Part shown: positions 3,194-21,351 of the stretch, one piece after another
Position numbering within the stretch: position 1 is the stretch's first letter
Layout of the letters: every line of letters begins with the position of its first letter
From: Candidatus Aminicenantes bacterium
GTDB lineage: Bacteria > Acidobacteriota > Aminicenantia > Aminicenantales > JAFGBC01
DNA length: 64,000 nucleotides
Direction: 5' to 3'
Assembly: GCA_963702005.1 (NCBI GenBank)
Contig: OY969696.1
Span: 2,720,001-2,784,000 of the forward strand
Translations under genes and position numbers: made by a program
Notes under the pieces: generated by a model
What the model was told of the DNA's origin: nothing
The model's input: the letters and a program-made list of their open reading frames with translations, nothing else
Database searches by the model: none

Positions 3194-3217
3194 AGGGAAG
3201 ATTTTCGGCATCATGAT

Positions 3218-3306
<89 letters not shown>

Positions 3307-3400
3307 ATATAGAACTGATTTTCAGTTAGTTAGCCTTTCTGACCTGGGCGGCCCGGTTTAATCTGGATTAGCCTCAATTTGCCCCTATTATCCCTCTAAC

Positions 3401-3421
3401 GTGGCACAAATGTGGCACAAA
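3401..3421 (+). repeat. Putative integrase arm-type sites, element 1 left arm
   Basis: GTGGCACAAA twice at 11-bp spacing; same motif at 16082. Confidence 0.7.
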
Positions 3422-3434
3422 AATATTTAATGGA

Positions 3435-4625: not shown

Positions 4626-4687
4626 TTTCTAGTTGCCTTCGACCCTTATCCTACATCATACTTTAAGGCGTAGCAAGGAATTTCAAA

Positions 4688-4906
4688 ATGAAAAAAGAAG
4701 GCACAAAGATTCAGCCGGGACGGACGCTGAAGAGTCTCCGCGTTTTAGCGGGACTTAATCAGAAGGATCTGGGAAATCTTATCGGAATTTCTCAGCAGGA
4801 GATCTCGAAGCTGGAGCACGGCGTATTTCTTCCGGGGTCCGAACTCAGACAAAAAATCTCGGACGCGCTAGGTCAGCCGGCCTCCATTATCTATCCGGAG
4901 CTCTAA
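4688..4906 (+). CDS. XRE/Cro-like HTH regulator
   Basis: LKSLRVLAGLNQKDLGNLIGISQQEISKLEHG. Confidence 0.88.
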   Translation: MKKEGTKIQPGRTLKSLRVLAGLNQKDLGNLIGISQQEISKLEHGVFLPGSELRQKISDALGQPASIIYPEL

Positions 4907-5128
4907 GTGGAATCTAGATATCTTCGACTCCCGGCAGCCTCCTTATATTTGGGATTAAGCCGGAGCACTGTATATAAATTGGTAAGTCGTCGGAAAATTC
5001 CGCACGTGAAGCTCGGCAAGGTCCTTATTTTTGACAAAAAAATTATCGATAGGTGGATGGCCCGGCGCCGGCAAGATCCGCCTGGCTGGGGCGCAGAGAA
5101 TCACGCGGCCCGCGCGTCAATGGAGTAA
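4907..5128 (+). CDS. Excisionase/AlpA-like HTH_17 protein
   Basis: YLGLSRSTVYKLVSRRKIPHVKLGKVLIFDKKIIDRW; GTG start. Confidence 0.85.
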   Translation: MESRYLRLPAASLYLGLSRSTVYKLVSRRKIPHVKLGKVLIFDKKIIDRWMARRRQDPPGWGAENHAARASME

Positions 5129-5131
5129 AAA

Positions 5132-7219: not shown

Positions 7220-7488
7220 TGGACGGTGAGCTGATCGGAGTCTTTTTGGCCGGGGTCTTTAGGCAGGACCCCCGTCGATTTCTTCTGGTCTTTGGCCCCT
7301 CGGCCAACACCTTCACCTTAACTTTTGTACCAACCGACGAGGCGGGGGAGCGCCTCCCGCTCACGTTTGAGACTATCTCCGCGATGCTCGAGGAAGCGAT
7401 CAAGAAGAGCTTCCTGGACCATGCCGTAGACGCCAAAGATGAGGCCGGCGAATGGGGGGGGGAGTTCGGGAAGCGGGGCAACGCTTAA
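7219..7488 (+). CDS. Hypothetical protein
   Basis: Coupled to the TMP stop; co-oriented. Confidence 0.55.
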   Translation: MDGELIGVFLAGVFRQDPRRFLLVFGPSANTFTLTFVPTDEAGERLPLTFETISAMLEEAIKKSFLDHAVDAKDEAGEWGGEFGKRGNA

Positions 7489-7519
7489 GGGCAACTGCGT
7501 TTTTTAAGGATTCGAACAA

Positions 7520-8896
7520 ATGAGCAACGAAGTCGAGCGCGGGATCCTGGCGGCCCTGGCATTGAGGCCGTCGCTCTTCGAGCTGGCCGACGTCACAGCG
7601 GCGGATTTCGCACCGGGCCGAACGCGGGAGATGTTCTCGCTCATGGCTGAACAATGGGAATCAGACCGTCCGGCTGATTCGGAAGGGATCGATCTCAATC
7701 GGATCGCAGACAAGCTTAGGGGAGACTGCCCAGGAACATTTTGCGCGGAGATTATATCAGGCCAGGTCCGGGTCGAGCCCGAAACGTTCAAGCGCCGCGT
7801 CGCCGAGATCAGGCGTTGCCGACGATCCGAGCAAATCGTCACGGAGGCCCTTAAACTAGGAGAGATCCATCTCAAGACCGGAGCCTTTGACAAGGAAGGA
7901 TTCGCCGAACTGAGCCGGCTGATCGTTAAGCAGAGTGCGAACGGCGGACCCCAGATCGACGTCCTCGAGGTGCTGCGCACGGGGACCGAGCTCCAAAAGC
8001 TGGACGCACGAATCGAATATAGCATAGACAAGCTCTTGCCGGCCAAAAGCCTAACGCTTTTCCACGGTCGAGGAGGGATCGGAAAAACCTGGATCTGTCT
8101 CCAGCTCGCCGCCGCCGTTTCGGAGGGCGTCCCCGTATTCGGACAGGCTTCACGGCTTCAACCCGTCGTCTTCATCAACTTTGAGAATCCGCTCGCAATC
8201 ATGGTTGAAAGGGTCCGGCGCCTCGATGTCCGGTACGTTCACTTCTGGGACCGATCGGCGGATCCCCGCCCTCCCAAACTTGACTCCCCAGATTACGAGC
8301 TCTACAAAAAGCTCCCGGCCGGAGCGCTGCTGATATTCGACTCGCTCAGGTCTGGACATGACGGGGACGAAAACTCGAGCCGGGATATGGCGATCGTCAT
8401 GGGGCGCCTCAAAGAGTTCCGGGAGGCCGGCTTCACCGTCCTGGTCAACCATCACTCGGCAAAAGGCAACGAGAAGAGCTATAAGGGCTCGACGGCGATC
8501 TCCGATCTCGCCGACCATGTCCTGTCTTTCTTCAAGGTCCGGCCATCCAGCTTCGAGGAGATTGAAGACGATCTGGGCCCGGCCCCCGGGGACCTCTTCT
8601 ATTTTGGGACGCGCGAAAAAACGCGCTACGAGCCCTTCAAGCTCTTCCTGAGTTTCCAGGACGGAGGCAGCTTCATCCTGGCCGGAGATCCGGATGTGGA
8701 TAAGCTGGCCGAGATACAGGCCTTCATCGGATCCGCCGGCCACGGCCTGACTCAAACAGAGGTCTGCGCCTGGGCGAAAGCTGAGTTTGGCATCGGCAAG
8801 AAAGGCAAGATCATCGCGCTCCTGACCAAAGGCGCCTCAGCAGGGCGCTGGAGGTCCCGGCGCGACGGCTACCGGAGGATCTATGAATCACTTTGA
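7520..8896 (+). CDS. Replicative helicase, DnaB-N-like domain plus RecA-fold AAA_25 (RepA-like)
   Basis: EVERGILAAL...ADF N-terminus; Walker A GRGGIGKT; LLIFDSL; HHSAK; YKGSTA. Confidence 0.82.
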   Translation: MSNEVERGILAALALRPSLFELADVTAADFAPGRTREMFSLMAEQWESDRPADSEGIDLNRIADKLRGDCPGTFCAEIISGQVRVEPETFKRRVAEIRRCRRSEQIVTEALKLGEIHLKTGAFDKEGFAELSRLIVKQSANGGPQIDVLEVLRTGTELQKLDARIEYSIDKLLPAKSLTLFHGRGGIGKTWICLQLAAAVSEGVPVFGQASRLQPVVFINFENPLAIMVERVRRLDVRYVHFWDRSADPRPPKLDSPDYELYKKLPAGALLIFDSLRSGHDGDENSSRDMAIVMGRLKEFREAGFTVLVNHHSAKGNEKSYKGSTAISDLADHVLSFFKVRPSSFEEIEDDLGPAPGDLFYFGTREKTRYEPFKLFLSFQDGGSFILAGDPDVDKLAEIQAFIGSAGHGLTQTEVCAWAKAEFGIGKKGKIIALLTKGASAGRWRSRRDGYRRIYESL

Positions 8897-8903
8897 CCGT
8901 GAT

Positions 8904-9135
8904 TCTGTCCCTCTGTCCCCCCTTATAAAGGGGGGGACAAAGGGAACAGAGTCATTCACTCTCTGTCCCAAGCCTAGGGAACAGACTGGGACAGAGGGGA
9001 CAGAGAGAGGGATCCTTCCTGTCCGGATTGTCTCGTCCCAGGGGACAGAGAGGCGAAAAATAGGGCTTTTTAACTGCACAAGAAATTGTGCACTTTTAAG
9101 CTCTGTCCCCGCGTTCGGGAACAGAGTCGGAACAG
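8904..9135. repeat. Iteron array and AT-richer tract: putative replication origin
   Basis: About 11 copies of GGG(A)ACAGA in both orientations immediately after the helicase gene; AT-richer tract ~9055-9100. Confidence 0.78.
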
Positions 9136-9423
9136 CCACGCGAAACGTCTCCGGACGGCCCTGGAGATCGAACGGCCAGAAACGCAAGAATGCCAACTCA
9201 GGAAACTACCCAGATCGGGCTCAGGTGCTTCGAGCCGGGAAAAGGCGAGACCGTTTGATTACGAGACAGAGGGTCCGGGCCGCTCTCTCGGGGAAAACAG
9301 AGGCTCCGGCCGTGCTCTGTGCCACATCTGTGCCAGTAAAAAGGCCGCGCGGGGGCGCCCTGGAATCCCAACTTACTGTTGATAAACAGGTTACATACTA
9401 CCTGATTACCCAGGGGAAATAAG

Positions 9424-10086
9424 GTGAACAAAGAGGAGAACAAACCCTACAAGTCGAAGGGAGGGCGACCCTATCGACACGGGGGATTTTCTATCTCTCT
9501 CAGAGATGAAATCCTCAAGGACAACCCCAGGATCCGGCGTTACCTGGCGGATACCCGTGTCGGCCTGGCCCGGGACATAGCCGGAGGAGAGGATTCGCTC
9601 TCGGAGATGCAGCGCGTGATGATCGACCGGGTTATTTCGAAGCTCGCCGTCTGTCGCCTCATCGAAGCCTACATCGAGAAGTACGGCGCATTCAGACAGG
9701 ATCGCTTCAAGCGGAAGATCCTCGAGCTCGAGCCCTGTCTGGGGAACTCATACCTGGCCTATTCAAACAGCATCGACCGGGCCCTGGTTGCGCTCGGCCT
9801 CTCGAAGAAGGAAGCAGCCCGGGTGATGACGCCGGCCGAGCTGATCCTCGAGGTAGGGAAGGGTAACGCCGGCCCGGGATCCAAGGACAAGGGGCCGGCC
9901 CCCAGTACCCGGCGCCGGGCTCCAGGGAAGGCGAAGGGCAAGAATCCCCAGGGGACGGGAGGGGCGAAGGGCGAGACTGTGGGTCTTGAGGCCGGAGAGA
10001 TCGTCCGTCCTGGGGCATCCAGTGACGAAATCCCGGGAGACAAGAGCGTCTCCGAGGCCCCCGGCCAGGGGGAGGATCAATCATGA
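9424..10086 (+). CDS. Putative terminase small subunit-like protein
   Basis: N-terminal GGRPYRHGGFS resembling the KHG-x-Y/F-S motif of TerS-like proteins; helical core; disordered tail; upstream of TerL. Confidence 0.45.
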   Translation: MNKEENKPYKSKGGRPYRHGGFSISLRDEILKDNPRIRRYLADTRVGLARDIAGGEDSLSEMQRVMIDRVISKLAVCRLIEAYIEKYGAFRQDRFKRKILELEPCLGNSYLAYSNSIDRALVALGLSKKEAARVMTPAELILEVGKGNAGPGSKDKGPAPSTRRRAPGKAKGKNPQGTGGAKGETVGLEAGEIVRPGASSDEIPGDKSVSEAPGQGEDQS

Positions 10087-10129
10087 TTCAAATAAACCTA
10101 GTGAGGCATTCGAGTCCTGGGAGAAAGCG

Positions 10130-10393
10130 ATGACGAATCGCGCAAGGCATAGGCGCCAGGCGCTGCAGAAAAGCGTTAACGCTTCGGATTCCGAGGAGTT
10201 GAGGGTGCAGGCCTTGCAGGGCGGATCCTGTGAGGTTTGCCGGGCGCCTGTCCATGCTTGTAAGGGTCGGCGTCGGCGCTTCTGCTCATCTCATTGTCGG
10301 CTCTTGGCTTGGGCCGTGGACGCCCTGGCAACGGCCCTGCAGCAAGGCAAGGCCGAAGGCCTGAGAGACGGGATCGGGAGATTGACATCATGA
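10130..10393 (+). CDS. Small Zn-finger protein
   Basis: CEVC...RRRRFCSSHC; stop overlaps the next start. Confidence 0.6.
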   Translation: MTNRARHRRQALQKSVNASDSEELRVQALQGGSCEVCRAPVHACKGRRRRFCSSHCRLLAWAVDALATALQQGKAEGLRDGIGRLTS

Positions 10394-10638
10394 GCGAAAT
10401 CTTAGGCAGGCTCCAGAAGAACACGGCGGAGGAATTGAGGATCGCCCTGGAGGTTTCCCGGCCCGGGCATGAATACCTGGACATCCGCGTCTGGAAGTCT
10501 GTCGAGGCCGGGCACAACGGCGCCGAGGATCCGACAGAGCGCGGCTTTTCCCTGGACGTCGAGCGTTTGCCCGAGCTCATCGGAGTCTTGGCAGAGGTCG
10601 AGCGCGGCTTGCAGGCACGGAAGGAAGGCAGCCGATGA
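10390..10638 (+). CDS. PC4/YdbC-like ssDNA-binding protein
   Basis: KNTAEELRIAL...YLDIRVW...PTERGFSL...LPEL pattern. Confidence 0.75.
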   Translation: MSEILGRLQKNTAEELRIALEVSRPGHEYLDIRVWKSVEAGHNGAEDPTERGFSLDVERLPELIGVLAEVERGLQARKEGSR

Positions 10639-11099
10639 TAGAGTTTGTCGTCCCTGGTGAGCCGCAAGCGAAAGGGCGGCCGCGCTTCTTTCCGATTCGG
10701 ACGAAGGCGGGCCGGACTTTCGGTCGGGCCGTGACACCGGATAAGACGCGGAGTTATGAAACCTTCATCAAGGAGCTTTTCGTCATGGCTTATCCGGGGT
10801 TCGTCCCGATGGAGGGGCCATTGTCGATGACGATCGAGGCTTTCCTGGGGATTCCGAAGTCGGCGTCGAAGACGAAACGAGAAGCGATGGAAGGCAGGAC
10901 CATCGTCCCGGAGAAGCGCCCGGATCTGGACAACCTCATGAAGGCGGCGGCGGACGCGCTTCAGGGGCTTGCCTTTCGGAATGATTCGCAGATAGTGGAG
11001 GCGGCTATTCGCAAGCGGTACTCGATCGCCCCCAGGATGAGAATACAGATCGGGACATTTGGCGGGAGAATGGATCAGGAAGGGAGGGCGGGTGTCTAA
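10635..11099 (+). CDS. rusA: RusA-family Holliday junction resolvase
   Basis: VPGEPQAKGRPRF; KRPDLDNLMKAAADAL; NDSQIV. Confidence 0.92.
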   Translation: MIEFVVPGEPQAKGRPRFFPIRTKAGRTFGRAVTPDKTRSYETFIKELFVMAYPGFVPMEGPLSMTIEAFLGIPKSASKTKREAMEGRTIVPEKRPDLDNLMKAAADALQGLAFRNDSQIVEAAIRKRYSIAPRMRIQIGTFGGRMDQEGRAGV

Positions 11100-12584
11100 A
11101 TGAACATTATCCAGGCCATTCAATCTCCCTTAGTTTTCCGCCCGCTCTTCAAAGACCTTGAGACCTGGCACTCTTGGGAGGTTTACCTTCGGGCGCTCTT
11201 CGGCCTTGATATCGAGAGAAAGAAGGACCTCGAGTTATTCCGCAGCTGCACGGGATTAGAAACTCCTGCGGGAAAGGCCGCCCATGAAAGCTTCGTGATC
11301 TGCGGCCGACGCAGCGGGAAGAGTTTCACCTGTGCACTGATCGCCTCGTACCTGGCCGCCTTCAGTGACTGGAGCCCATTTCTGGGTCCAGGGGAGCGGG
11401 GTTGGATCTTCATCATCGCCGTGGACAAGGCGCAGGCGGGGATCATCAAGAGTTATGTCTCCGGGATTTTTCACTCGAATAAAAGCCTCGAGGCGATGAT
11501 CCGGCTGGAGACGAAGGAGACGCTTGAGCTCTCTAACAATGTGAACCTCGGGGTGAAGACGTGCAATTTCCGGACCGTCCGCGGCTACACGGTGCTATGC
11601 GCGATTCTCGAAGAGATGGCCTTCTGGCGGTCGGAGGATACCGGCGCAAATCCGGACAGGGAAGTCCTGGCAGCGATCCGGCCCGCGCTGGCTACGGTGC
11701 CCGATTCCTTTTTGATCGGGATCTCAACACCATACAGCCGGCAGGGCGTGCTCTGGGAGCAATTCCGGGTGAACTGGGGGAAGCCGGGCGGACCCCTGAT
11801 CTGGCGCGCGGGGACCTCGACGATGAATCCGACGATCAGCCGGAAGACGATCGAGACGGCCCTGGCGACCGACCGGACCGCGGCCGCCGCTGAGTGGGAG
11901 GCCGAATGGAGAGAGGACATCTCCACGTTCATGCCGCTCGAGATGGTCGAGGCCGTAGTCGTCCCGGGCCGATATGAGCTGCCGAAGGTCGAAGGCGCCG
12001 ATTACCATGCGTTCTGTGATCCCTCCGGCGGGCGCCAGGACTCGATGACGCTGGCTATCGGCCACAGGGACGCCGTCGGCCATGTCATCCTTGATGTCCT
12101 CCGCGAGGCCCGGCCGCCCTTCACGCCGGGGAGCGTCGTTGCCGAGTTCTCCGACCTGCTCAAGGGATTCGGGATCTGCTCGGCCCGGGCGGATCGGTAT
12201 GCCGGCGAGTGGGTGACGTCAGCCTTCAGAAATCACGGGATCAGCATCGAGGCCTCGGAGTTCACGGCCTCCGAGATCTACGTCAACTTCCTGCCCCTTG
12301 TGGCGAACGGGTCAGTCGAACTCCTGGACATCAAACGCCTAACCGCCCAGTTCACGGGGCTCGAGCGCCGGACCCGGAGCGGAGGCAGGGACCTCGTCGA
12401 CCACTACGCCGGCGGACACGATGACCTGGCCGTGGCCGCGGCCGGCGCCTGCGTGATGGCGGCGAAGAATTCGGGGGCGGCCGGCTATGAAGGCTGCCCG
12501 GCTGAGGATGATGACGATGAGGATGGCGGCGTTCGTATTGCGGGGATTAATGATCTGCGGCGTGAGCTGAGGCGTGGAACCTAG
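11100..12584 (+). CDS. terL: Terminase large subunit
   Basis: Walker A GRRSGKS; Walker B ILEEMAF; ISTP coupling motif; nuclease motifs DPSGG..DS and HDDLAVA. Confidence 0.85.
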   Translation: MNIIQAIQSPLVFRPLFKDLETWHSWEVYLRALFGLDIERKKDLELFRSCTGLETPAGKAAHESFVICGRRSGKSFTCALIASYLAAFSDWSPFLGPGERGWIFIIAVDKAQAGIIKSYVSGIFHSNKSLEAMIRLETKETLELSNNVNLGVKTCNFRTVRGYTVLCAILEEMAFWRSEDTGANPDREVLAAIRPALATVPDSFLIGISTPYSRQGVLWEQFRVNWGKPGGPLIWRAGTSTMNPTISRKTIETALATDRTAAAAEWEAEWREDISTFMPLEMVEAVVVPGRYELPKVEGADYHAFCDPSGGRQDSMTLAIGHRDAVGHVILDVLREARPPFTPGSVVAEFSDLLKGFGICSARADRYAGEWVTSAFRNHGISIEASEFTASEIYVNFLPLVANGSVELLDIKRLTAQFTGLERRTRSGGRDLVDHYAGGHDDLAVAAAGACVMAAKNSGAAGYEGCPAEDDDDEDGGVRIAGINDLRRELRRGT

Positions 12585-12632
12585 CGATGAGGTGCCTCAG
12601 TTTGAATAAAAAATAATCGAGGAGGCAAGACA

Positions 12633-13187
12633 ATGACGGACAAAGAACGGTATCTCAAGATCAAGGACGGTCGAGACAGCCTGGCCTCGAAGCTCTCGGC
12701 TTTTCCCCGGGAGATCGAGACCCTGGGCGCGGAGATCGCACCGTTAGAGGAAGAAGTCCTCAAGCTCGAGATCCTCGGAGATTCGAGCGCGGCGGCGAAG
12801 CGGGCAGAGATCCGGGAGAAGACGGCGCATATCCGGCAACTCGAAAGCGAGCGCGAAGAAGCCAAGCGGCGTCTGGAAGTCTCGGGCAAAGTCCTCGTGG
12901 AGCTCCGGGAAAAGGCCGAAAAAGAACTCTACCCCGGCCAGGCCAAAATGCTCAAGAGGGCGATCGAGGTCTTCCTGGCCAAAATCCAGGAAGCCTTCGC
13001 TGCGGAGATCGAACTTTCGGCCGCAAGAGAGGAAGTGAAGCGGGTCTTCCAGGAGATCGACTCGGGCAACTTCCCGACCGTTTCGTGGAATCCGATCTTC
13101 CTTCGAGGGCCCTGGGACAAGCAGATGAAGGGCGCCGTGGAGTCGATTCTCGCCGAACTGCAGGCAGGTCTTCAAATCCTGAAATAG
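12633..13187 (+). CDS. Coiled-coil hypothetical protein
   Basis: GGAGG RBS; E/K/R/L-rich heptads. Confidence 0.7.
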   Translation: MTDKERYLKIKDGRDSLASKLSAFPREIETLGAEIAPLEEEVLKLEILGDSSAAAKRAEIREKTAHIRQLESEREEAKRRLEVSGKVLVELREKAEKELYPGQAKMLKRAIEVFLAKIQEAFAAEIELSAAREEVKRVFQEIDSGNFPTVSWNPIFLRGPWDKQMKGAVESILAELQAGLQILK

Positions 13188-13196
13188 GAGGCACGC

Positions 13197-13745
13197 ATGA
13201 TCAAGTTAGAAAGAGGAGCTCACGATCGATTCTTCCGAAAAAAGATCATTCGTGAGCGCCAGATCAAGATGCTTAACAAGTACGTGCCGCTGGCAGAACG
13301 GATCTGGTTCAGCTACAATTCCGTTGACGTCGACGACGTCCCGGACCACGTGAACGCCGCAGCGCGCCGGATGATGAATTTCTGCGCCTTCAAGCTCGGG
13401 CTAAAGAAACTCAGCATTGAATGGATCGAAGGTGAGGCGGTCCCGGCAAGGTCCAAGGGGGCGAATAAATTCAAGTATACCCTCCCGGAGCCGCTCCTGG
13501 GGCGCAGCTCTCCCGGATCGGAGACGATCGAGATTCGCTGCGACATGCCCGTCTCGGACATCCTGCACGCGATCTCCCACGAGGCGCATCACGTTTGGTT
13601 CGAGAGGGCCCACGGGAAGACGTATCCCTACACAAGAGAGCGCGAGATGTGGGAGAACACCGCGAACACCTTTGCGCTCCTGGCCCTCCAGGGACTCAAG
13701 GATCAAGATGCGATCGGATCCCGATGCGGCTGGTACGGCGGGTGA
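13197..13745 (+). CDS. HExxH metallopeptidase-like protein (ImmA/IrrE-like)
   Basis: IEIRCDMP...ISHEAHH...E..ANTFA; GGAGG RBS. Confidence 0.62.
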   Translation: MIKLERGAHDRFFRKKIIRERQIKMLNKYVPLAERIWFSYNSVDVDDVPDHVNAAARRMMNFCAFKLGLKKLSIEWIEGEAVPARSKGANKFKYTLPEPLLGRSSPGSETIEIRCDMPVSDILHAISHEAHHVWFERAHGKTYPYTREREMWENTANTFALLALQGLKDQDAIGSRCGWYGG

Positions 13746-13766
13746 GAGAAAAGCTGCCAGAGCGCG

Positions 13767-13955
13767 CTAGCGGCCTCTGACCGCGTTAACCGTCCTGGAC
13801 TTGATGAAGCGGTCTATATCCTCTCGCCGGAATAGGACGCGGCGGTCGAGCTTGATGTAGGGCAGGTACTTCTCTTTTATCCACTTGTCGAGAGTGCTCC
13901 TGCTGATTCTTAGGTATCCCATGAGCTCAATTTTGGTTAAAAGGGACTTTTCCAT
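13767..13955 (-). CDS. Excisionase-like HTH_17 protein
   Basis: LLTKIELMGYLRISRSTLDKWIKEKYLPYIKLDRRVLFRREDI. Confidence 0.85.
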   Translation of the reverse strand: MEKSLLTKIELMGYLRISRSTLDKWIKEKYLPYIKLDRRVLFRREDIDRFIKSRTVNAVRGR

Positions 13956-14001
13956 CCCGGGCAATCATAGCAGGTTCGTCCAAAAAAGTGAATAAAAAAG
14001 C

Positions 14002-14046
14002 TTGACAATCAAGCATAAACGTGTAAAGATAAGCATAGACAAGCAT
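14002..14046 (+). promoter_or_regulatory. Divergent control region with AAGCAT direct repeats
   Basis: TTGACA at 14002; AAGCAT at 14011, 14031 and 14041 (10-bp phasing). Confidence 0.55.
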
Positions 14047-14074
14047 GAGAAAACAGAGAAGGGAATACGATAAA

Positions 14075-14257
14075 ATGGTTAAATTATTCTCTATCAAAGA
14101 GATATGTGATCTGTGCAGCGTCAAAAGATCCACCGTCCTTCAGTGGATTGGCTCGGACCGACTCCGGGCCTTTAAGCTCGGCGGGGGGCGCCTCTGGCGG
14201 ATCCGGGAGCATGATCTTAAGAAATTCATAGACACAAGCGCGCGGGATTCTCGATGA
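14075..14257 (+). CDS. Excisionase-like HTH_17 protein
   Basis: LFSIKEICDLCSVKRSTVLQWIGSDRLRAFKLGGGRLWRI. Confidence 0.85.
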   Translation: MVKLFSIKEICDLCSVKRSTVLQWIGSDRLRAFKLGGGRLWRIREHDLKKFIDTSARDSR

Positions 14258-14421
14258 CAACACTTCTCAATAGGAAGGATACGGCCAAGATGTTCGGCGT
14301 GACGCTGCGGACAGTAGATAACTGGTGTCGGGCGGGGCTTCTTCCGTTTATTGCACTGCCGGGCGGGAAGCGATTTGATCTTCAGGATATAGAACGCTTC
14401 ATCAACGCCAGGAGGCGATAA
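14254..14421 (+). CDS. Excisionase-like HTH_17 protein (55 aa, absent from the ORF track)
   Basis: Manual translation MTTLLNRKDTAKMFGVTLRTVDNWCRAGLLPFIALPGGKRFDLQDIERFINARRR; ATGA overlap with the upstream gene. Confidence 0.82.
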   Translation: MTTLLNRKDTAKMFGVTLRTVDNWCRAGLLPFIALPGGKRFDLQDIERFINARRR

Positions 14422-14763
14422 ATGAGCAAAAAGGTGATGAAACTCCTCGATGCCTCGACGGGACTCATGGAGTGTCGCGTCTGTGGCCGGCAGCATCACG
14501 CCTCACTCCTCGAGGGCGGGCGATATGCCCGCGGATCCTGGAAATGTTCGGACGGCTGCAAGCATTCGGATCTTCGGAAAGTCAAAGTCCGTCTGGCGGG
14601 AGGAGAACTCTCCGAATTTCGGCTCGTGGTCGGCGCGGGGATACCCGTCCTTGAGAACGCCGGCGGCCAAATCTACGGACCCGGAGACATCCGGTTCTCC
14701 GAGATCCTCTTCGTCCCGGCCTGGGCCGAGGACCTGCTCCGCTGGGCAGGATATCAATTCTGA
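14422..14763 (+). CDS. Zn-ribbon hypothetical protein
   Basis: MECRVCG...WKCSDGC; GGAGG RBS. Confidence 0.65.
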   Translation: MSKKVMKLLDASTGLMECRVCGRQHHASLLEGGRYARGSWKCSDGCKHSDLRKVKVRLAGGELSEFRLVVGAGIPVLENAGGQIYGPGDIRFSEILFVPAWAEDLLRWAGYQF

Positions 14764-14776
14764 AAGGGAGGATATC

Positions 14777-15016
14777 ATGAAGACCGAAGTCTGCTTGATT
14801 AAGAAGTCTCAGAAGTCCGCTAAAGGGCCCGTGTCCTTACCTACGCTCATATCCCGCAAAAACGAAAAATGTTATCTCTCGGAATTGGCCAAAATAGCGG
14901 CTGCCCTGGGCGTCACGCTGAAGGATTTTTTCATCGAGAATGGCCGGATAACTTACAAGCACGTGCTGCTCATGTACAAACTTGCCGAAGAACTCAACAT
15001 GAAAACGGGAAGGTGA
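14777..15016 (+). CDS. Small protein with a degenerate XRE-HTH C-terminal signature
   Basis: GGAGG RBS; LAKIAAALGVTLKDFF. Confidence 0.55.
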   Translation: MKTEVCLIKKSQKSAKGPVSLPTLISRKNEKCYLSELAKIAAALGVTLKDFFIENGRITYKHVLLMYKLAEELNMKTGR

Positions 15017-15018
15017 CC

Positions 15019-16146
15019 ATGAGCGCCTCAGCCCACGTCCGAGTTCCCGGCCTGGGCCGTATCTATCGGGTCGGCCGGATCTGGTATGTGGATTACTGGG
15101 TTGATGGCTGCCGCAAGCGCGAGCGCGCGAGCGGGGACAAGGAAATGGCCCTCAGTATCCTGGCCGCGAAACGAACGGACGTCGAACGCGGAGAGCTCGG
15201 CTTCGAGAAAAAGCAGATCCTTCACTTCGCTTCCTTCGCCGAGGAGTACAAGAAGATTAAGGCAGGTTCGAGGTCCATCTGTAGCATCCGGGGATATATC
15301 AAGCACCTTCTTCGATTCTTCGGAGATCTCCAGCTCTCGAAGATCACGCCGGAGATGATCGAGGGATATAAGCAAAAACGGCTCAAACAGAAAGTCCGCG
15401 GCCAGGACCTCAAGCGGACGATGAAGGGCTCGAGCATTAACCGGGAGCTGGCAACCCTCAAGAACATTTTCAGCGTCGCGTTGAAACAGAAGCGATATCG
15501 TGGAGATAACCCGGTCAGGCAGGTGTCCTACTTTCCCGAACAGAATCGCGATTATGTCCTCAGCAAGGAAGAGATCGGGCGCCTCCTCGAAGCAGCCGGC
15601 GGGACCCTGCGGAAGATTGTCTTGATCGCGCTGAATACAGGACTCAGGAAGGGCGAGATCCTGTCCCTGAGATGGAACCAGGTCAATTTTGAGGAAGGTA
15701 TTATCTCTTTCGCTAGAACCAAGAGTGCCAAGTATTTCCGGGTCCCCATGAATCAGGTCGTACGGGATATTCTTGCCGGGGTCGAGAAGAAAAGCGATCA
15801 TGTCTTTCCGGGTCGTGGAAGTCGGGGGTATCTCTTCGACTGTAAGAAGCAGTTCGAAGCCGCCCGGGAAAAGGCCGGCCTGCCGGAGTTGCGGTTTCAT
15901 GATCTCCGGCACTGCGCCGGCACGTACATGGCCGCGGCCGGCATCCCTTTGACCACAGTCCAGCAGATCCTCGGACATCAGGACATTCGGACGACCATTC
16001 GATATATCAACCCGAATGATGAAGGGCGTAGAAAAGCCGTCAACGCCCTGGCAGCTCTCTTCGTAGATCCCGGGCAGGGGAGTGGCACAAATATGACACA
16101 GGAAGAAATCCGGGAGCCCGCAACGATAGAGATATCAACCAATTAG
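15019..16146 (+). CDS. int: Tyrosine recombinase (phage integrase)
   Basis: TGLRKGE, RTKS, FHDLRH, LGHQDIRTTIRY; stop 14 nt before the att core. Confidence 0.96.
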   Translation: MSASAHVRVPGLGRIYRVGRIWYVDYWVDGCRKRERASGDKEMALSILAAKRTDVERGELGFEKKQILHFASFAEEYKKIKAGSRSICSIRGYIKHLLRFFGDLQLSKITPEMIEGYKQKRLKQKVRGQDLKRTMKGSSINRELATLKNIFSVALKQKRYRGDNPVRQVSYFPEQNRDYVLSKEEIGRLLEAAGGTLRKIVLIALNTGLRKGEILSLRWNQVNFEEGIISFARTKSAKYFRVPMNQVVRDILAGVEKKSDHVFPGRGSRGYLFDCKKQFEAAREKAGLPELRFHDLRHCAGTYMAAAGIPLTTVQQILGHQDIRTTIRYINPNDEGRRKAVNALAALFVDPGQGSGTNMTQEEIREPATIEISTN

Positions 16147-16160
16147 GGCGGGGCACTCCG

Positions 16161-16220
16161 TGACTACGAATCAGAAGGTCGCAAGTTCGAATCTTGCCGG
16201 GCGCGTTTCTAAATTCCCCC
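16161..16220 (+). repeat. att core copy 2 (junction of elements 1 and 2)
   Basis: Identical to 3247-3306. Confidence 0.95.
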
Positions 16221-16383
16221 TGTAACTTCTGTAAATCAAGGGCTTAGCATGATTCGGGGCGGGGAAAGGCTTTAAATCATCTTCAGCCGTTTTATGCCTT
16301 TTTCAGCCAAAAAGCGGAAAGAAAGCGGAAAGCGTTTTTGAAACTACAATCGGAATTGTAGGGAAACGTCCCCCGGCGGAATT

Positions 16384-17013
16384 CTATTTCACCTTGATGA
16401 TGAAATTGACACTCGCGTTCTTGGGCCGGGTCTCTTCTCCCGCGTTAACCCACGACTTGGTGTTGTACCTTGTCGCGCCCATGATGTTCGCATTGACCGA
16501 GGTAGACATCTTATAATACCAGGAACCAACATCATAGGCCCAAAAACCTGTTCCGCTAGCGGCCGCACTCGCGACTTGAGTGTGTTCGTACTGATGGCTG
16601 TGCGGAGTCTGAGCATGCGTATGGTTTTGCATCATATCCTCTTGGACCGACCCGACGCCCGTCGCGCTCCCACCGGGATTGGAGGGCTTGCGCTTCTTCA
16701 CATCGGGATCCCGGCCCGTTCCTGCGTCATCACCTCGAAGGAACCTCCCCCTGAGGTCGGGCAGATTGAATTTGTCGCCAGCGCTTCCCCATGACGTTCC
16801 GATGGCCGTGAAGAGCTCCGTATAGACCGATTTGCTCAGCGCCTTGCCGTTGCACAGCATCCAGTTCGCGGGAATGGAACTCGATGCGCCGCCCCAAGCT
16901 ATGATGGTGCCTACGGGCAGCGAATTATCTGTCGCCCTTGTCGGGGCCATGATGCCCACGGCGCCCGCAGCCGACAATATTGATAAAACGCCGGCCAATA
17001 CTAGGTTCTTCAT
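16384..17013 (-). CDS. Phage tail-collar/fibre-tip domain protein with N-terminal signal-peptide-like segment (copy A)
   Basis: PVGTIIAWGG..PANWMLCNG..FNLPDLRGRFLRG; HTH..HSH; ETRPKN..VNFIIK. Confidence 0.88.
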   Translation of the reverse strand: MKNLVLAGVLSILSAAGAVGIMAPTRATDNSLPVGTIIAWGGASSSIPANWMLCNGKALSKSVYTELFTAIGTSWGSAGDKFNLPDLRGRFLRGDDAGTGRDPDVKKRKPSNPGGSATGVGSVQEDMMQNHTHAQTPHSHQYEHTQVASAAASGTGFWAYDVGSWYYKMSTSVNANIMGATRYNTKSWVNAGEETRPKNASVNFIIKVK

Positions 17014-17123
17014 GCTATCCCTCCAAATAAAAAATTGATAAGCCGGACAAGGATTCCCTTTTCAACCGCGCCCGGCCGCAATCTGCCATTCAGGTCGATT
17101 TCTCATCTTGCTACTTGGGACAA

Positions 17124-17151
17124 AGATAAATCCCTGTTCTGGATATGTCAA
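17124..17151 (-). promoter_or_regulatory. Sigma70-type promoter of copy A (duplicated near 17973-18001 for copy B)
   Basis: Minus strand TTGACA-N17-TATCTT in both duplicated upstream regions. Confidence 0.6.
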
Positions 17152-17232
17152 GAACGGTGGGATGATAAGTCGGGACGGGTCGGCGGCCGCCGGGGGGAGT
17201 TCGATGAGGCCGGGGAAGGCCCGGACCTGGAG

Positions 17233-17862
17233 CTATTTGACCTTGATGATGAAATTCACGGCCGCGTTTTTCGGGCGCGTTTCTTCTCCCGCGTTGACTT
17301 GCGACTTGGTGTTATATCTTATCGCGCCTAATATGTCCGCCTTCTCCCCCATGGTTAATTGCCCCGTGAATTGGTTTTCCATAACAGATACTCCTGATCC
17401 GGTATCAGCGATGTTAATCGGCGTATTATAAAAGTCATAGTAATGTTGATGGGGATTCTGGTCATGCGTATGGTTTTGCAGCGAATCCTCCTGGACGGAG
17501 CCGACGCCTGTCGCGCTGCCGCCGGGATTGGATGGCTTCCGCTTTTTCACATCGGGATCCCTGCCCGTTCCTGCGTCATCACCCCGAAGGAACCTCCCCC
17601 TAAAATCGGGCAGATTGAATTTATCTCCCGCGCTTCCCCAAGACGTCCCGATGGCCGTAAAGAGCTCTTTATAGACCGCTTTGCTCAGCGACTTGCCGTT
17701 GCACAGCATCCAGTTTGCCGGAACGGAGCTTGATACGCCGCCCCAGGCGATGATGGTCCCCACGGGCAGCGAATCGCCGGTCGCCCTCGCCGGAGCCATG
17801 ATGCCCACGGTCCCCACAACCGACAACGTTGATAAAACGCCGGCCAATACTAAGTTCTTCAT
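17233..17862 (-). CDS. Phage tail-collar/fibre-tip domain protein with signal-peptide-like segment (copy B)
   Basis: Paralogue of 16384-17013 at 849-bp offset; same length, different tip segment. Confidence 0.88.
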   Translation of the reverse strand: MKNLVLAGVLSTLSVVGTVGIMAPARATGDSLPVGTIIAWGGVSSSVPANWMLCNGKSLSKAVYKELFTAIGTSWGSAGDKFNLPDFRGRFLRGDDAGTGRDPDVKKRKPSNPGGSATGVGSVQEDSLQNHTHDQNPHQHYYDFYNTPINIADTGSGVSVMENQFTGQLTMGEKADILGAIRYNTKSQVNAGEETRPKNAAVNFIIKVK

Positions 17863-18146
17863 AGCTATCCCTCCTTATAAAAACAGGATAAGCCGGATGA
17901 GGATTCCCTTTTCAACCACGCCCGCCCGCAATCCGTAATTCAAGTCGATTCCCTATCTTGCTACTTGGGACAAAGATAAATCCCTTTTCTGGATATGTCA
18001 AGGATGGTGGGATGATAGGTAGGGACGGCTGGGCGGTCGCGAAATTAAGCGAATACATGATAGAAACCGGAAAGAAAGCGGAAAGCCTCGTAATCCACCG
18101 TCCCGTAACCGACTATAAATCAAACCTTTAGAGAGGGTAAGGCGCG

Positions 18147-18194
18147 GACTACGAATCAGAAGGTCGCAAGTTCGAATCTTGCCGGGCGCGTTTC
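18147..18194 (+). repeat. att core copy 3 (48 bp)
   Basis: GACTACGAATCAG...GGGCGCGTTTC identical to 3248-3295. Confidence 0.93.
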
Positions 18195-18206
18195 CTGATT
18201 CAGCCG

Positions 18207-18356
18207 TCAGTTGGAATCGGGGTAGCAGAACCAGCGGGCGTCTTCCTGGCGGACGTCGGCCCGGCGGGAATTCACCTGTTTCCGGCTGGGCAGGAAGGCA
18301 AAAAGAATCATGGCGGCGCCCAGAATCCCGAACATGGCCAAAATGAGCTTCTTCAT
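18207..18356 (-). CDS. Small (49 aa) membrane or secreted protein, absent from the ORF track
   Basis: MKKLILAMFGILGAAMILFAFLPSRKQVNSRRADVRQEDARWFCYPDSN; GAAGGTG RBS; sigma54 site upstream. Confidence 0.6.
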   Translation of the reverse strand: MKKLILAMFGILGAAMILFAFLPSRKQVNSRRADVRQEDARWFCYPDSN

Positions 18357-18402
18357 ATCGCACCTTCTATATGAACTGATAATTCATTTCAAAAAATAAT
18401 TA

Positions 18403-18418
18403 TGCAATTTTTGTGCCA
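18403..18418 (-). promoter_or_regulatory. Sigma54 (-24/-12) promoter
   Basis: Minus strand TGGCAC-AAAAA-TTGCA, matching the RpoN consensus. Confidence 0.7.
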
Positions 18419-18677
18419 GTCTCGGGAAAAAAGCCTCTCCCATAAATTTGATATTTCTTCGCCCTATACTGACCATATTTTTGCCTTATTTTTGTCTCTC
18501 ATGTAAATAAAATTGACATAGGGGGATTCCGGCCGCCTGTTCTTTCGGGAGGACGCCTGTCCATCGTTTGACCCATTCGCCGACGCTACTCCGCCCTGAA
18601 AGGCGGGGACGAGAAGCGCGGCTCAGGGTTAAACCCTGACCAAGCCGTGGCATTCCTGCCGGGGAGCAGTCTTGCAG

Positions 18678-18713
18678 CACTCATACTAAGCCGGAAACGG
18701 CTTAGTATGAGTG
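18678..18713. repeat. Perfect 16-bp inverted repeat with GAAA loop
   Basis: CACTCATACTAAGCCG-GAAA-CGGCTTAGTATGAGTG. Confidence 0.85.
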
Positions 18714-18756
18714 TCGAGGGTTTGACACTCCCGTCCAAAGGAGTTAAAAAAGAACC

Positions 18757-21351
18757 ATGAAAAGAATCCCCGGTCTCGGTTTCGTCATCATAATCGTCCT
18801 GGCGATATTCCCCCTCGAGCTCCGCTCCCAGGAGGGGCTTATACCCCGTTTCTCATTAGATGAGTCGGACATCGCCCTCTCCCGCCTCGCCCAGCCTCAG
18901 ACCTATTTCGATAGGGCGGGCCGGCGTTTCGCCATCCTGGGCCTCGAGAGCGGGACTTTCGAGGCTTGGGCTTACCCGCTCAAGCTCGTCAGGAACGCGG
19001 AGCTTTCCTTCTTGATCGGGTCCAGCACTCAACCTATCCCGGCCCGGGACATCGTCCGTTTCATCACGGTCACTCCGGCCGCGACGACCCTGACCTACGT
19101 CTATCAATCCTTCACCGTCCGCGCGACCTACGTTGCTTCCATCGAAGAGCCGGGAGCCGTCATCCTGCTCGCGGTCGACAGCATCGAGCCGCTGACCGTG
19201 GTTTGCTCCTTCCTGCCCGTCCTCCAGCCGATGTGGCCGGCCGGGATCGGCGGCCAATATAGCTACTGGGACGACACGATAAAAGCTTACCTCATCTCCG
19301 AGCCGACCCGGCGCAACCACGGCTTCTTGGGATCGCCGGCCGGAAGGGGAATATCCTACACGCCGGCCCACATGCTGTCCGATGTCCCCAACCAGTTCAA
19401 GATCGAGATCACGGACCCCGCTTCCGTGCGCGGCCGGTTCATCCCCATCATTATCGCCGGCGGCAAGGGGGCGCGTGACGATATCCGCGGTGTTTACGAG
19501 CGTCTCGCCGCCGACCCAAAGGCCGTCTACGCCGCCGCCGCCGCCCATTATGACCGGCTCCTGGCCGAAACCCTTCATATCACGACACCTGACGTCCGGC
19601 TCAACCTGGCCTGGGAATGGTCCAAGATCGCTTACGACAACCTCATCGTCGACAATCCCGACCTCGGCCGAGGGATGGTGGCCGGGCTCGGGCTGTCGGG
19701 CACGGGCGGGCGCCCCGGCTTCGGTTGGTTCTTCGGCGCCGACGCCTACCTCAATTCGTTGAGCCTGCTCGGGTTCGGCCGGCACGAAACGGTCCGCGAC
19801 GTCCTTGCCTTTACCCAAAAGTGGCAACGGGAAGACGGCAAGATGGCCCATGAGCTCAGCCAGGCCGCCGGCTACATCAACTGGTTCAAGGATTATCCCT
19901 ACGCCTATATCCACGGCGATACATCTCCTTATTACATCGCCGCCGTTTACGCCTATTTCCGCAGGAGCGGGGACGAGGAGTTTCTGAAGGCGAGCTGGCC
20001 CTCGCTCAAGAAAGCCTTCGCCTGGTGTTTATCCACCGATGATGACGGCGACGGCCTTATGGATAATAAAAAAGCGGGGCTGGGCGCGCTGGAGTTCGGG
20101 TCCCTCACCGGAATCCAAACCGATATCTACTGCGCCGCGGTCTGGCTCCGGGCCTGCCAAGCGATTGAAGAGCTCGCCCGGGCGGCGGGGGAGCCGGCCC
20201 TATCTCGAAAGGCGGCGGATCTATTCGCCAAAGGCCGCCGCGCCCTGGAGGACAGGCTCTGGGATGAAGAGGCCGGCCAATATGCTTACGCCTTCAACGC
20301 GGCGGGTCAGAAGGTTAAGGAGCCCAGCCCCTGGAACGCCTATCCGCTGGCTTGGTCTCTTGCCGACGGCGAGCGGAGTGTCAGATCCCTGGCCCGCCTC
20401 AACGAATCCGACATGACGACCGATTGGGGCGTCCGCATCCTGTCCAGCCGCAGCAAACTCTACGAGCCTCTCAATTACAACTACGGGGCGGTCTGGCCTT
20501 TCCTGACGGGCTGGGTCGCGACCGCCCTCTTTAAACACGGCTTCCTCCCTCAGGGATATCAAGCCTTAATGAGCTCGGTCCGGCACAGCTTCGACAACGC
20601 GCTCGGCGAGGTCACCGAGCTTTTTTCGGGCGCCCTGAACACCTGGCCCCAGGAGGCCGTGGCCCACCAGGGATTTTCGACCGGCGGCGTTTCGCTGCCC
20701 CTGGCTTGGGGGCTGCTCGGGCTCGACGGCGATGCCGCGAATAGGTCGATCCTGTTCGAACCCTGCTTTCCCGCCGACTGGCCGGAGGTTCGGATCGAGA
20801 GATTCCGGGTCGGAGGCGCATCTTTCGATTTGGCTTATACGCGGCGGGAGGACGGCATCCGGCTCGAGGTTGCGTCCAAAGGGGGAGAGGCGGCCGGATT
20901 CAAGCTTCGCTTCGCCCCAGCTCTCGGCCTGGGGACAAAAATCCTGCGCGGTTCCTGCAACGGGACGCCCATTCCGGTCGAAGCGGAAACGCCGGCCTGG
21001 GCTCAATCGATGAGGCCCGGGATCGAGGTCCCGTTGACGGGATCGGACATCGTCGAGATAGCCATCGAGTCCACGGCCGAAATCCTGCCGCCGGGGAACG
21101 ACACGGCGACGGGGGATTGCGACAAGGGACTGAAGATCCTCAAGATCAGCCTGGCCGGGAGCGATCTCACGGTTGCCTGCGAGGGTCTCGCCGGACGCGA
21201 ATACGCCTTGCCCATTCTCCGACCGGAGAGGGTCGCGTCCGTTGTCGGCTCTGTATTGAGCGGTCGAAGCCTGAAGATTCTCATGCCAGCCGGCCCGGCC
21301 GGAGGATTCGTCCGGCACGAGGTCAAGCTGACGCTTAAGACGAAGCGCTGA
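18757..21351 (+). CDS. Exported (alpha/alpha)6 glycoside hydrolase, amylo-alpha-1,6-glucosidase-like
   Basis: Signal peptide; GRPGFGWFFGAD; QREDGKMAHE; DDDGDGLMDN; YNYGAVWPF. Confidence 0.8.
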   Translation: MKRIPGLGFVIIIVLAIFPLELRSQEGLIPRFSLDESDIALSRLAQPQTYFDRAGRRFAILGLESGTFEAWAYPLKLVRNAELSFLIGSSTQPIPARDIVRFITVTPAATTLTYVYQSFTVRATYVASIEEPGAVILLAVDSIEPLTVVCSFLPVLQPMWPAGIGGQYSYWDDTIKAYLISEPTRRNHGFLGSPAGRGISYTPAHMLSDVPNQFKIEITDPASVRGRFIPIIIAGGKGARDDIRGVYERLAADPKAVYAAAAAHYDRLLAETLHITTPDVRLNLAWEWSKIAYDNLIVDNPDLGRGMVAGLGLSGTGGRPGFGWFFGADAYLNSLSLLGFGRHETVRDVLAFTQKWQREDGKMAHELSQAAGYINWFKDYPYAYIHGDTSPYYIAAVYAYFRRSGDEEFLKASWPSLKKAFAWCLSTDDDGDGLMDNKKAGLGALEFGSLTGIQTDIYCAAVWLRACQAIEELARAAGEPALSRKAADLFAKGRRALEDRLWDEEAGQYAYAFNAAGQKVKEPSPWNAYPLAWSLADGERSVRSLARLNESDMTTDWGVRILSSRSKLYEPLNYNYGAVWPFLTGWVATALFKHGFLPQGYQALMSSVRHSFDNALGEVTELFSGALNTWPQEAVAHQGFSTGGVSLPLAWGLLGLDGDAANRSILFEPCFPADWPEVRIERFRVGGASFDLAYTRREDGIRLEVASKGGEAAGFKLRFAPALGLGTKILRGSCNGTPIPVEAETPAWAQSMRPGIEVPLTGSDIVEIAIESTAEILPPGNDTATGDCDKGLKILKISLAGSDLTVACEGLAGREYALPILRPERVASVVGSVLSGRSLKILMPAGPAGGFVRHEVKLTLKTKR

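Follow-up and report, generated by a model that had tools for sequence, protein, structure and literature searches.

Tail-collar genes with a probable export leader and a hypervariable, putatively tip-forming segment in a Candidatus Aminicenantes genome: a pair at a tRNA-Arg site and its eight-member family

In the genome of a Candidatus Aminicenantes bacterium (assembly GCA_963702005.1, one contig of 4.31 Mb, here called C1) we analysed a stretch of 64,000 nucleotides, C1:2720001-2784000, hereafter the window, in which two neighbouring genes, W1 and W2, encode small proteins related to the receptor-binding end of phage tail fibres. They are members of a widespread, functionally uncharacterised bacterial tail-collar family, and the explanation that we favour, and hold to be somewhat probable, is that they serve as exported, trimeric binders of the COG4675 'tail collar' family which the genome gained by horizontal transfer. 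Each protein would at first carry a Sec signal peptide, probably removed by signal peptidase I, and the mature part of about 182 residues would correspond to the shaft-less C-terminal receptor-binding module of a short fibre of the T4 gp12 type, that is, a collar followed by an intertwined head that metal bound to histidines keeps together on the threefold axis, in this case with two HxH motifs. In the predicted homotrimer a hairpin of about 35 residues after the second HxH would present the ligand-binding surface, and the family would amount to a repertoire of trimeric lectin-like binders located in the cell envelope or outside it. The two genes are the following:

16384..17013, reverse strand: W1, a paralogue of 209 residues with leader 1-27, Collar 35-92, double HxH 131-140, variable block about 143-177 and a conserved C-terminus
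17233..17862, reverse strand: W2, a paralogue of 209 residues with the architecture of W1 and another tip

The original prediction for this region, made from the sequence alone, had described two paralogues of 209 residues repeated with a period of 849 bp, each with its own copy of a promoter region. The open reading frames (ORFs) are indeed found at these positions, in a direct repeat with a start-to-start period of 849-850 bp whose unit includes the promoter and the 5' untranslated region (UTR). The two proteins share 156 of 210 aligned positions (74%, E 4e-116, BLASTP). At the DNA level the repeat is 86% identical in the 5' two-thirds of the genes, 80% in the last 111 nt and 86% in the 177 nt upstream of each start, and the similarity breaks down only at about 16495-16585, roughly residues 144-173. 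Both BLASTP and the paralogue alignment return the unrelated tip segments and the common ETRPKN C-terminus that had been described. The idea of a duplication needs a qualification: the pair is real, but it does not stand for a simple duplication, since W1 and W2 are two members of an eight-member family in the same genome. Moreover, synonymous differences between them are spread along the whole gene (16-38% of the conserved codons in each segment), so that a recent simple swap of tips between these two copies, which we considered, is not indicated.

The relationship to phage fibres, which had been proposed from the motifs, is borne out by profile and structure-based comparisons. The Pfam Collar model (PF07484) matches the pair with 68.7 and 65.1 bits (cut-off 24), over residues 35-92 and profile positions 1-57 of 57, and all eight genomic copies exceed the cut-off. 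The mature part, residues 27-209, can be aligned over its whole length to residues 336-526 of T4 gp12, a chain of 527 residues represented by three PDB sequences, with E values from 4e-16 to 1e-13 (4.3e-16 for 1ocy and 1.3e-13 for the alignment to gp12 336-526). In Leiman et al. (2010, PMC3004832) the collar of gp12 is placed at residues 342-397 and His445 and His447 are given as zinc ligands; H131 and H133 of W1 fall on these two histidines in the alignment. The motif concerned is:

16594..16623, reverse strand: W1 double HxH (H131-x-H133-x-Q-x-x-H138-x-H140), from the gp12 alignment and the homologue counts

All 67 close homologues have H131, H133 and H140, and 66 of them have H138; the HxH motifs named in the original prediction are thus real, and metal binding is predicted from the gp12 alignment. 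The PHROG tail-fibre profiles match the collar proteins only through the C-terminal parts of the profiles, the matches in the ESM Atlas belong solely to 'phage tail protein' and MdpB clusters, and NCBIfam contains no family for W1 or W2. No fibre shaft is present, the Collar domain starting at residue 35, right behind the leader.

Compared with T4 gp12 (1OCY, 1PDI, 5IV5), the proteins have in common the collar and the metal-binding head with its HxH and C-terminal strand, and a trimer is predicted here. Yet gp12 has 527 residues, a long beta-helical shaft, a baseplate attachment, a single HxH and no leader, and its gene lies among those of the virion and its assembly takes place in the cytoplasm, whereas W1 and W2 have 209 residues, a leader, two HxH motifs and no shaft. 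With COG4675/PF07484, the 'microcystin-dependent protein MdpB', they share the Collar domain, the small size and the frequent occurrence in tandem copies, and JGI labels close homologues of W1 and W2 as 'microcystin-dependent protein'. Being short, shaft-less and outside virion gene clusters, the pair follows the stand-alone pattern of COG4675. What sets its subfamily apart is the fixed leader of 27 residues, the double HxH, the single hypervariable block and the presence of eight copies.

Structure prediction points in the same direction. The AlphaFold2 (AF2) monomer, based on an alignment of 85 sequences, has a mean predicted local distance difference test score (pLDDT) of 74 and a predicted template modelling score (pTM) of 0.53, with the collar above 90, and it renders residues 2-21 as a single helix. 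Its best Foldseek matches are 1ocy, 5iv5 and 1pdi (E 6e-6 to 1e-5, probability 1.00), at an identity of 26-28% in the alignments to these gp12 structures, and the next ones are a cyanophage tail fibre and the needle tip of the T4 long fibre. When three copies of residues 27-209 were predicted together, the interface score ipSAE was 0.89 (0.87, 0.89 and 0.89 in the single runs) against 0.00 for the best of three controls; contacts agreed in at least 95% between runs and the partner pLDDT was at least 86. On calibration, 20 of the 30 proteins that had been solved as pairs of one chain came up to the mark for this score, and so did 1 of the 23 that had been solved as single chains.

The leaders occupy the first 27 codons of each gene:

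16933..17013, reverse strand: W1 Sec-type leader, codons 1-27, with Lys2, a 21-residue hydrophobic core and Pro-Thr-Arg-Ala before the predicted cut
17782..17862, reverse strand: W2 Sec-type leader, codons 1-27, from the paralogue alignment and the substitution ratios

The leader consists of Met-Lys, a hydrophobic stretch of 21 residues and Pro-(Thr/Ala)-Arg-Ala, with the Collar domain beginning eight residues later. The claim of a hydrophobic, Sec-like leader ending in xRA applies in fact to all eight paralogues: each leader ends in (A/T)-R-A, contains neither a lipobox cysteine nor a twin arginine, and scores between 2.1 and 2.8 for its hydrophobic 12-mer. A hydrophobic N-terminal 12-mer of at least 2.0 is found in 66 of the 71 closest database homologues, and of the other five, four are N-terminally truncated records that start inside or after the leader and one scores 1.91. 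Among the 67 close homologues that could be aligned, position -3 is A, T or S in 61 and position -1 in 53, while a proline stands at -4 in 34. The ratio of non-synonymous to synonymous divergence (dN/dS) over the 28 paralogue pairs is 0.19 in the leader, 0.11 in the collar, 0.18 in the HxH region and 0.15 in the C-terminus; all four parts are under purifying selection. Since the value of the leader is like that of the rest, the leader is translated and constrained, and the true start does not lie downstream of it. The export leader thus appears as a genuine part of the protein, and signal peptidase I probably cuts after (A/T)-R-A27, judging from the residues around this position.

Some observations weigh against this reading and should be considered together. 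The 21-residue hydrophobic core is of a length compatible with an uncleaved membrane anchor, and in a distant subgroup of homologues (P0044-P0055) the region before the expected cut has no clear A-x-A. The mature protein of about 182 residues carries no obvious anchor, which weakens a role as a cell-bound adhesin. The quality of the monomer model is only moderate, with residues 181-200 below 50-58 pLDDT; the good score of the trimer may stem from the model's memory of, or likeness to, the solved gp12 trimer; and PF14928 (S_tail_recep_bd) reaches only 17.9 bits in W1, over residues 120-208, against a cut-off of 23.8, with no match in W2. The first two of these observations also feed a rival explanation, according to which the uncut leader would serve as a transmembrane helix, display the trimer on the inner membrane and let the tip sense or bind an envelope component, or an incoming one, in the periplasm. 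The core would be long enough to span the membrane, the Collar domain starts just about eight residues past it, and the AF2 helix at residues 2-21 would suit an anchor as well as the missing A-x-A of the distant subgroup; on the other hand, the small residues at -3 and -1 and the proline at -4 are conserved as for a cleaved site, and helix-breaking glycines lie within the core. We consider this periplasmic display unlikely. As for export with cleavage, the reading that we prefer, further passage across the outer membrane is conceivable; the genome contains two secretin genes, without any link to the collar proteins.

The most conspicuous property of the family is the segment that follows the second HxH:

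16483..16587, reverse strand: W1 hypervariable block, residues 143-177 (BLASTP, DNA repeat, entropy, pairwise identity)
17332..17436, reverse strand: W2 hypervariable block, coordinates approximate and in the register of W1 (BLASTP, DNA repeat)

In the 67 close homologues the mean column entropy is 3.11 bits in block 143-177, against 1.11 in the collar, 1.31 in the HxH region and 1.18 in the C-terminus, and the length of the block ranges from 33 to 43 residues. The 2211 pairs that these homologues form have a median identity of 14% within the block, compared with 60% in the remainder of the protein. The two parts are moreover uncoupled: the identity between P0010 and P0021 is 94% within the block and 76% outside it, and that between P0003 and P0004 is 16% within the block and 92% outside it. 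This entropy contrast, together with the uncoupled identities, supports the expectation that tips vary independently of the scaffold; the uncoupling is visible in the wider family only, and not between W1 and W2. It indicates that the block is exchanged, or that particular block types are retained on diverged scaffolds. Within the block the proportions of non-synonymous and synonymous differences (pN 0.59, pS 0.74) are saturated, so that dN/dS cannot be estimated there. In composition, the block contains 24% Ser/Thr and 5% basic residues, versus 14% and 13% in the rest of the protein, a weak hint of a polar binding surface.

It was also expected that the variable segment would map to the distal tip. 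The monomer model shows the block as a beta-hairpin (strands 141-150 and 157-169), and in the predicted trimer residues 149, 151-157 and 161-164 are not named in the interface, which for such residues means merely that they are uncertain, while those flanking them are named. A centre outside the interface with flanks inside it fits a projecting loop, and it is plausible from these models that the block, which sits in the gp12-type head after the metal-binding histidines, is a projecting loop or distal tip.

Two known mechanisms of tip diversification were evaluated and both were rejected. For a diversity-generating retroelement, the only RVT_1 match, at C1:665581, is over 1.1 Mb away from all family loci; no template-like repeat was present, and the blocks differ by insertions and deletions and at all residue types. 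For switching by inversion, the repeat analysis of the window showed no inversion system, and the genes are separate and co-oriented.

As anticipated above, W1 and W2 are not alone. The genome holds eight intact family copies, namely the pair, a co-oriented array of five genes at C1:2580513-2584805 and a singleton at C1:1792955-1793587. The array sits between an IS200-type transposase gene and tRNA-Leu(CAA), at 207 bp from the tRNA, and the singleton follows a duplicated tRNA-Glu 3' region. The GC content (GC) of the family genes is 54-58%, compared with 60.4% for the genome. Array expansion, which had been put forward as something to look for, has occurred in the family: the five-gene array arose partly from a segmental duplication of 1949 bp. 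This duplication (positions 10907-11102 and 12856-13051 of the array locus L009) copied the 5' part of tRNA-Leu(CAA) and carried along the region upstream of a collar gene, and reveals the way in which the array expanded. A quick tree was made of the constant parts, with the six of the eight copies that are in the database set; there the copies interleave with metagenomic sequences, which suggests that the paralogues predate the divergence of the organisms that carry them. The family would thus have been acquired horizontally at tRNA-linked sites of low GC, and would have grown by tandem duplication combined with tip exchange or rapid turnover.

Some further observations concern these two loci. 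The array locus (C1:2572001-2592000) lies near heptose-pathway and heptosyltransferase (GT9) genes for the lipopolysaccharide core (L009 5258-7731); the IS200-type transposase gene separates the array from them, and the proximity is possibly a coincidence. At the singleton, tRNA-Glu(CTC) occurs twice together with about 130 nt of its downstream sequence, the copies lying 2119 bp apart (88% over 181 nt; L010 6899-9224) on either side of an ORF of 560 residues that has no Pfam match; the collar gene comes after them.

Expression signals are conserved together with the genes:

17123..17151, reverse strand: W1 promoter-like site TTGACA-17-TATCTT, sigma-70-like
17973..18001, reverse strand: W2 promoter-like site TTGACA-17-TATCTT, sigma-70-like
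17014..17115, reverse strand: W1 conserved 5' UTR of about 100 nt, from sequence conservation
17863..17965, reverse strand: W2 conserved 5' UTR, from sequence conservation

The promoter-like site lies about 110 nt upstream of each gene and matches 10 of 12 consensus positions. Two such sites in total occur in the 2-kb region, and in shuffled sequences their mean number is 1.6, so that the count itself is not significant; the case for the promoters comes from their identical placement in the two copies. With the 177 nt upstream of each start repeated and an identical site in each copy, the duplicated promoter region of the original prediction is real. Promoter and UTR are common to six of the eight paralogues, one of them with an internal deletion, and to the metagenome locus L092, and a GGAGGG ribosome-binding site precedes the ATG by 4-7 nt in all eight. 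Since each gene has in front of it a separate copy of the conserved promoter and 5' UTR, the paralogues are probably switched on together. The 5' UTRs of W1 and W2 are 86% identical although about a third of the synonymous codons of the coding parts differ. A consensus fold of the UTR from six copies (30 pairs, one two-sided change, covariation +0.11 kcal/mol) does not support a structure, and it is only a guess, to which covariation lends no support, that the 5' end of the UTR may pair with the ribosome-binding site. An Rfam scan of positions 16000-18500 gave a single sub-threshold chance match, located on the tRNA fragment.

The conservation just described bears on a further possibility, that the pair is debris of a decaying prophage with no present function. 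The genes do lie within a remnant flanked by attachment (att) repeats that holds only a trace of an integrase (see below). All eight reading frames are nevertheless intact, dN/dS outside the tip is 0.11-0.19, promoter, UTR and ribosome-binding site are conserved, and full-length relatives occur in many metagenomes. In our judgement it is very improbable that the pair is mere debris.

The genomic context of W1 and W2 is that of a mobile element inserted at a tRNA gene, with these features in the window:

3217..3292, forward strand: tRNA-Arg(ACG), whose 3' part forms the left att copy, starting at about 3248
14869..16146, forward strand: tyrosine integrase of island A, ending 15 nt before the middle core
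16162..16209, forward strand: middle 48-nt att core (tRNA-Arg 3'), directly after the integrase gene
16314..16333, forward strand: left copy of a 20-nt direct repeat flanking the pair (2 matches versus 0.01 expected by chance)
18067..18086, forward strand: right copy of the 20-nt direct repeat flanking the pair, with 1 mismatch
18102..18131, forward strand: possible remnant of an integrase 3' end, suggested by weak similarity
18147..18194, forward strand: right 48-nt att core, followed by the chromosomal flank

The 48-nt att core is present in three identical copies in the window, and W1 and W2 occupy the 2-kb segment (GC 53%) between the middle and the right one. At its left end this segment has 11 further bases in common with the left end of island A, and the spacing from the stop codon of the putative integrase remnant to the att core is that of the stop codon of the island A integrase. 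From these sequence features we infer that the segment may be what is left of a second integrative element, related to island A and in tandem with it, of which W1 and W2 would be surviving cargo, unless they are a later insertion. Homologues of the glycosidase of the right flank were found in 9 of 12 relatives; the two loci inspected have neither the tRNA nor synteny of the left flank, and the insertion is therefore defined by the att repeats only. The contigs of four wetland DNA runs were uninformative, being short fragments in which joints at paralogous repeats could not be assigned to this genome. Just upstream of the glycosidase gene, at 18560-18760, there is a short repeat that has 148 BLASTN matches in the genome and whose contig depth in wetland metagenomes is very high; it ends in a TTGAC-containing stretch before the gene.

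Island A itself (3296-16161) is a 13-kb insertion at tRNA-Arg(ACG), with a GC of 56% versus 62% in its flanks. It encodes an AAA_25 primase-helicase-like protein, RusA, two excisionase-type HTH_17 proteins, the tyrosine integrase and a 494-residue protein with weak matches to terminase large subunits, and no capsid or tail families were recognised in it; by its gene content it looks like a phage-satellite-type element.

Such a neighbour makes it natural to ask whether W1 and W2 are fibre tips of a virion, a satellite or a tailocin, possibly mounted on tails hijacked by island A, as the original prediction had mentioned as its less likely alternative. The homology to tail-fibre heads and the satellite-like gene set of island A (primase-helicase, RusA, terminase-like protein, integrase) would agree with this. 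The cytoplasmic assembly of virions, however, does not fit a conserved and selected Sec leader, and on this account hijacked tails are unlikely; shaft and attachment domains are also missing from the proteins, Phage_sheath_1 and Baseplate_J have no match in the whole genome, and six of the eight copies are far from island A. The neighbours of the family genes are att repeats, an integrase, tRNA genes, IS200 and housekeeping genes. The pair is hence not part of a virion gene set, and we regard a role as tail tips as most improbable. With fibre-head homology, a constrained leader and a setting outside virion genes, the proposal of domesticated, exported receptor-binding proteins is supported in part.

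The distribution of the family is patchy. Sixty related genomes were searched (2 from the same genus and 58 from the same order; 47 have a completeness of 90% or more with contamination of 5% or less), many of them fragmented and all together a sample; in none of the 60 was there a match to the protein query at E 1e-10 or to the Pfam Collar model at E 0.001. Close relatives, with 47-76% identity, equal length and a leader, come from metagenomes, mostly on short contigs. Two of these loci could be read in context, and neither has phage genes around it: L089 lies between two ordinary S58 peptidase genes, without signs of mobile elements, and L092 lies between tRNA-Arg(TCG), at a distance of 272 bp, and a BamB-like gene. 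Relatives of 45% identity or less were found in Chitinophagales, Flavobacteriales, Myxococcota, Verrucomicrobiota, Spirochaetota, Bacteriovoracaceae and others. Among 156 loci fetched from other phyla, 18 hold two to six matches, and 41 of the 73 ORFs of up to 260 residues have a hydrophobic N-terminus.

In the phage collection 1694 records matched, all below 60% identity. The best phage identities are 33-39%, with none above 38.7% among the 25 best of the 1694, and most of the matches start at query residues 22-35, which lie behind the leader. A library of 1.84 billion proteins clustered at 50% gave 44,655 representatives at E 0.001, 9,564 at 1e-10 and 168 at 1e-30. Many of these library relatives have between 3 and 12 collar-head-like stretches within a single polypeptide (P0121, for example, has 4832 residues and 12 stretches), and proteins of about 510-540 residues with three stretches are common, so that fused multi-head forms and single-head forms coexist.

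The original prediction had also proposed that such proteins act as receptor-masking, anti-phage decoys. The exported heads would then bind the surface receptors of their own cell, or be shed, and block adsorption, as moron-type cargo of which each tip would cover a different receptor. Several observations agree with this. The genes are self-contained promoter-gene units at the att-proximal end of a decayed integrative element, their GC is low, and 0 of 60 relatives have them. Other family loci also lie beside tRNA genes or fragments of them (tRNA-Leu, tRNA-Glu and, at L092, tRNA-Arg(TCG)). In addition, gp12-type heads bind lipopolysaccharide, more precisely its core. Against it, neither protein matches any defence model of PADLOC-DB 2.0 at E 0.01, and passage across the outer membrane is unsupported, the two secretin genes not being tied to the collar proteins. 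The paralogues are old (16-38% synonymous differences) and counterparts of them occur in further metagenomes, as would suit a housekeeping-like repertoire no less than an arms race, and the locus between the S58 peptidase genes has no mobile-element signs. We therefore regard masking or decoy activity as rather unlikely. A particular version of it, in which the eight genes form a surface-shielding repertoire whose exported heads bind again to envelope glycans of the producer or of its neighbours and so block phage adsorption, seems to us improbable, though worth stating. Overall, no sheath or baseplate J protein, a distant reverse transcriptase and no defence match mean that tail assembly, a retroelement and a known defence system are all unsupported.

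It remains to compare the exported binding modules that we favour with systems described previously. In the acidobacterium Candidatus Solibacter usitatus, Challacombe et al. (2011, PMC3174227) report a group of tail-collar paralogues under positive selection (Z = 3.70), and COG4675 proteins have been detected in soil metaproteomes, according to PMC5579227. A functional study of small exported collar proteins was not found in the literature searched, subscription journals lying largely outside that search. The closest functional analogue is the MAT family of Bdellovibrio bacteriovorus, 21 phage-fibre-like trimers that bear signal peptides, differ in their C-terminal tips and are found on the cell surface, one of which binds prey glycans (PMC10769870). 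According to the same paper, MAT proteins are long fibres (with crystallised fragments to residue 1,151) that have a beta-rich, conserved domain about 130 residues long behind the signal peptide, shafts of the beta-helical or prism kind and often an S74 chaperone-protease; none of these shafts or proteases is present in W1 and W2, in which the mature part of about 182 residues is entirely gp12 collar and head and leaves no room for the 130-residue domain. The word 'collar' does not appear in the text of that paper (PMC10769870), whereas W1 and W2 use the gp12 collar and head. For the PilV-tail collar fusion, too, it has been proposed (PMC9881135) that bacteria put the tail collar domain to a second use, in the variable recognition of surfaces; that case is a pilus-tip fusion diversified by programmed DNA inversion; W1 and W2, by contrast, are separate genes with their own promoters.

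The locus is a clean case for study, since it combines a minimal, probably exported gp12-type head, one replaceable putative tip, eight natural variants and a high-scoring trimer prediction. If surface shielding were true, it would constitute a principle of defence drawn from the phage's own recognition module and diversified by the exchange of tip cassettes. More generally, the family could show how bacteria make use of domesticated phage receptor-binding modules, be it for adhesion, for the recognition of other cells or for protection against phages.

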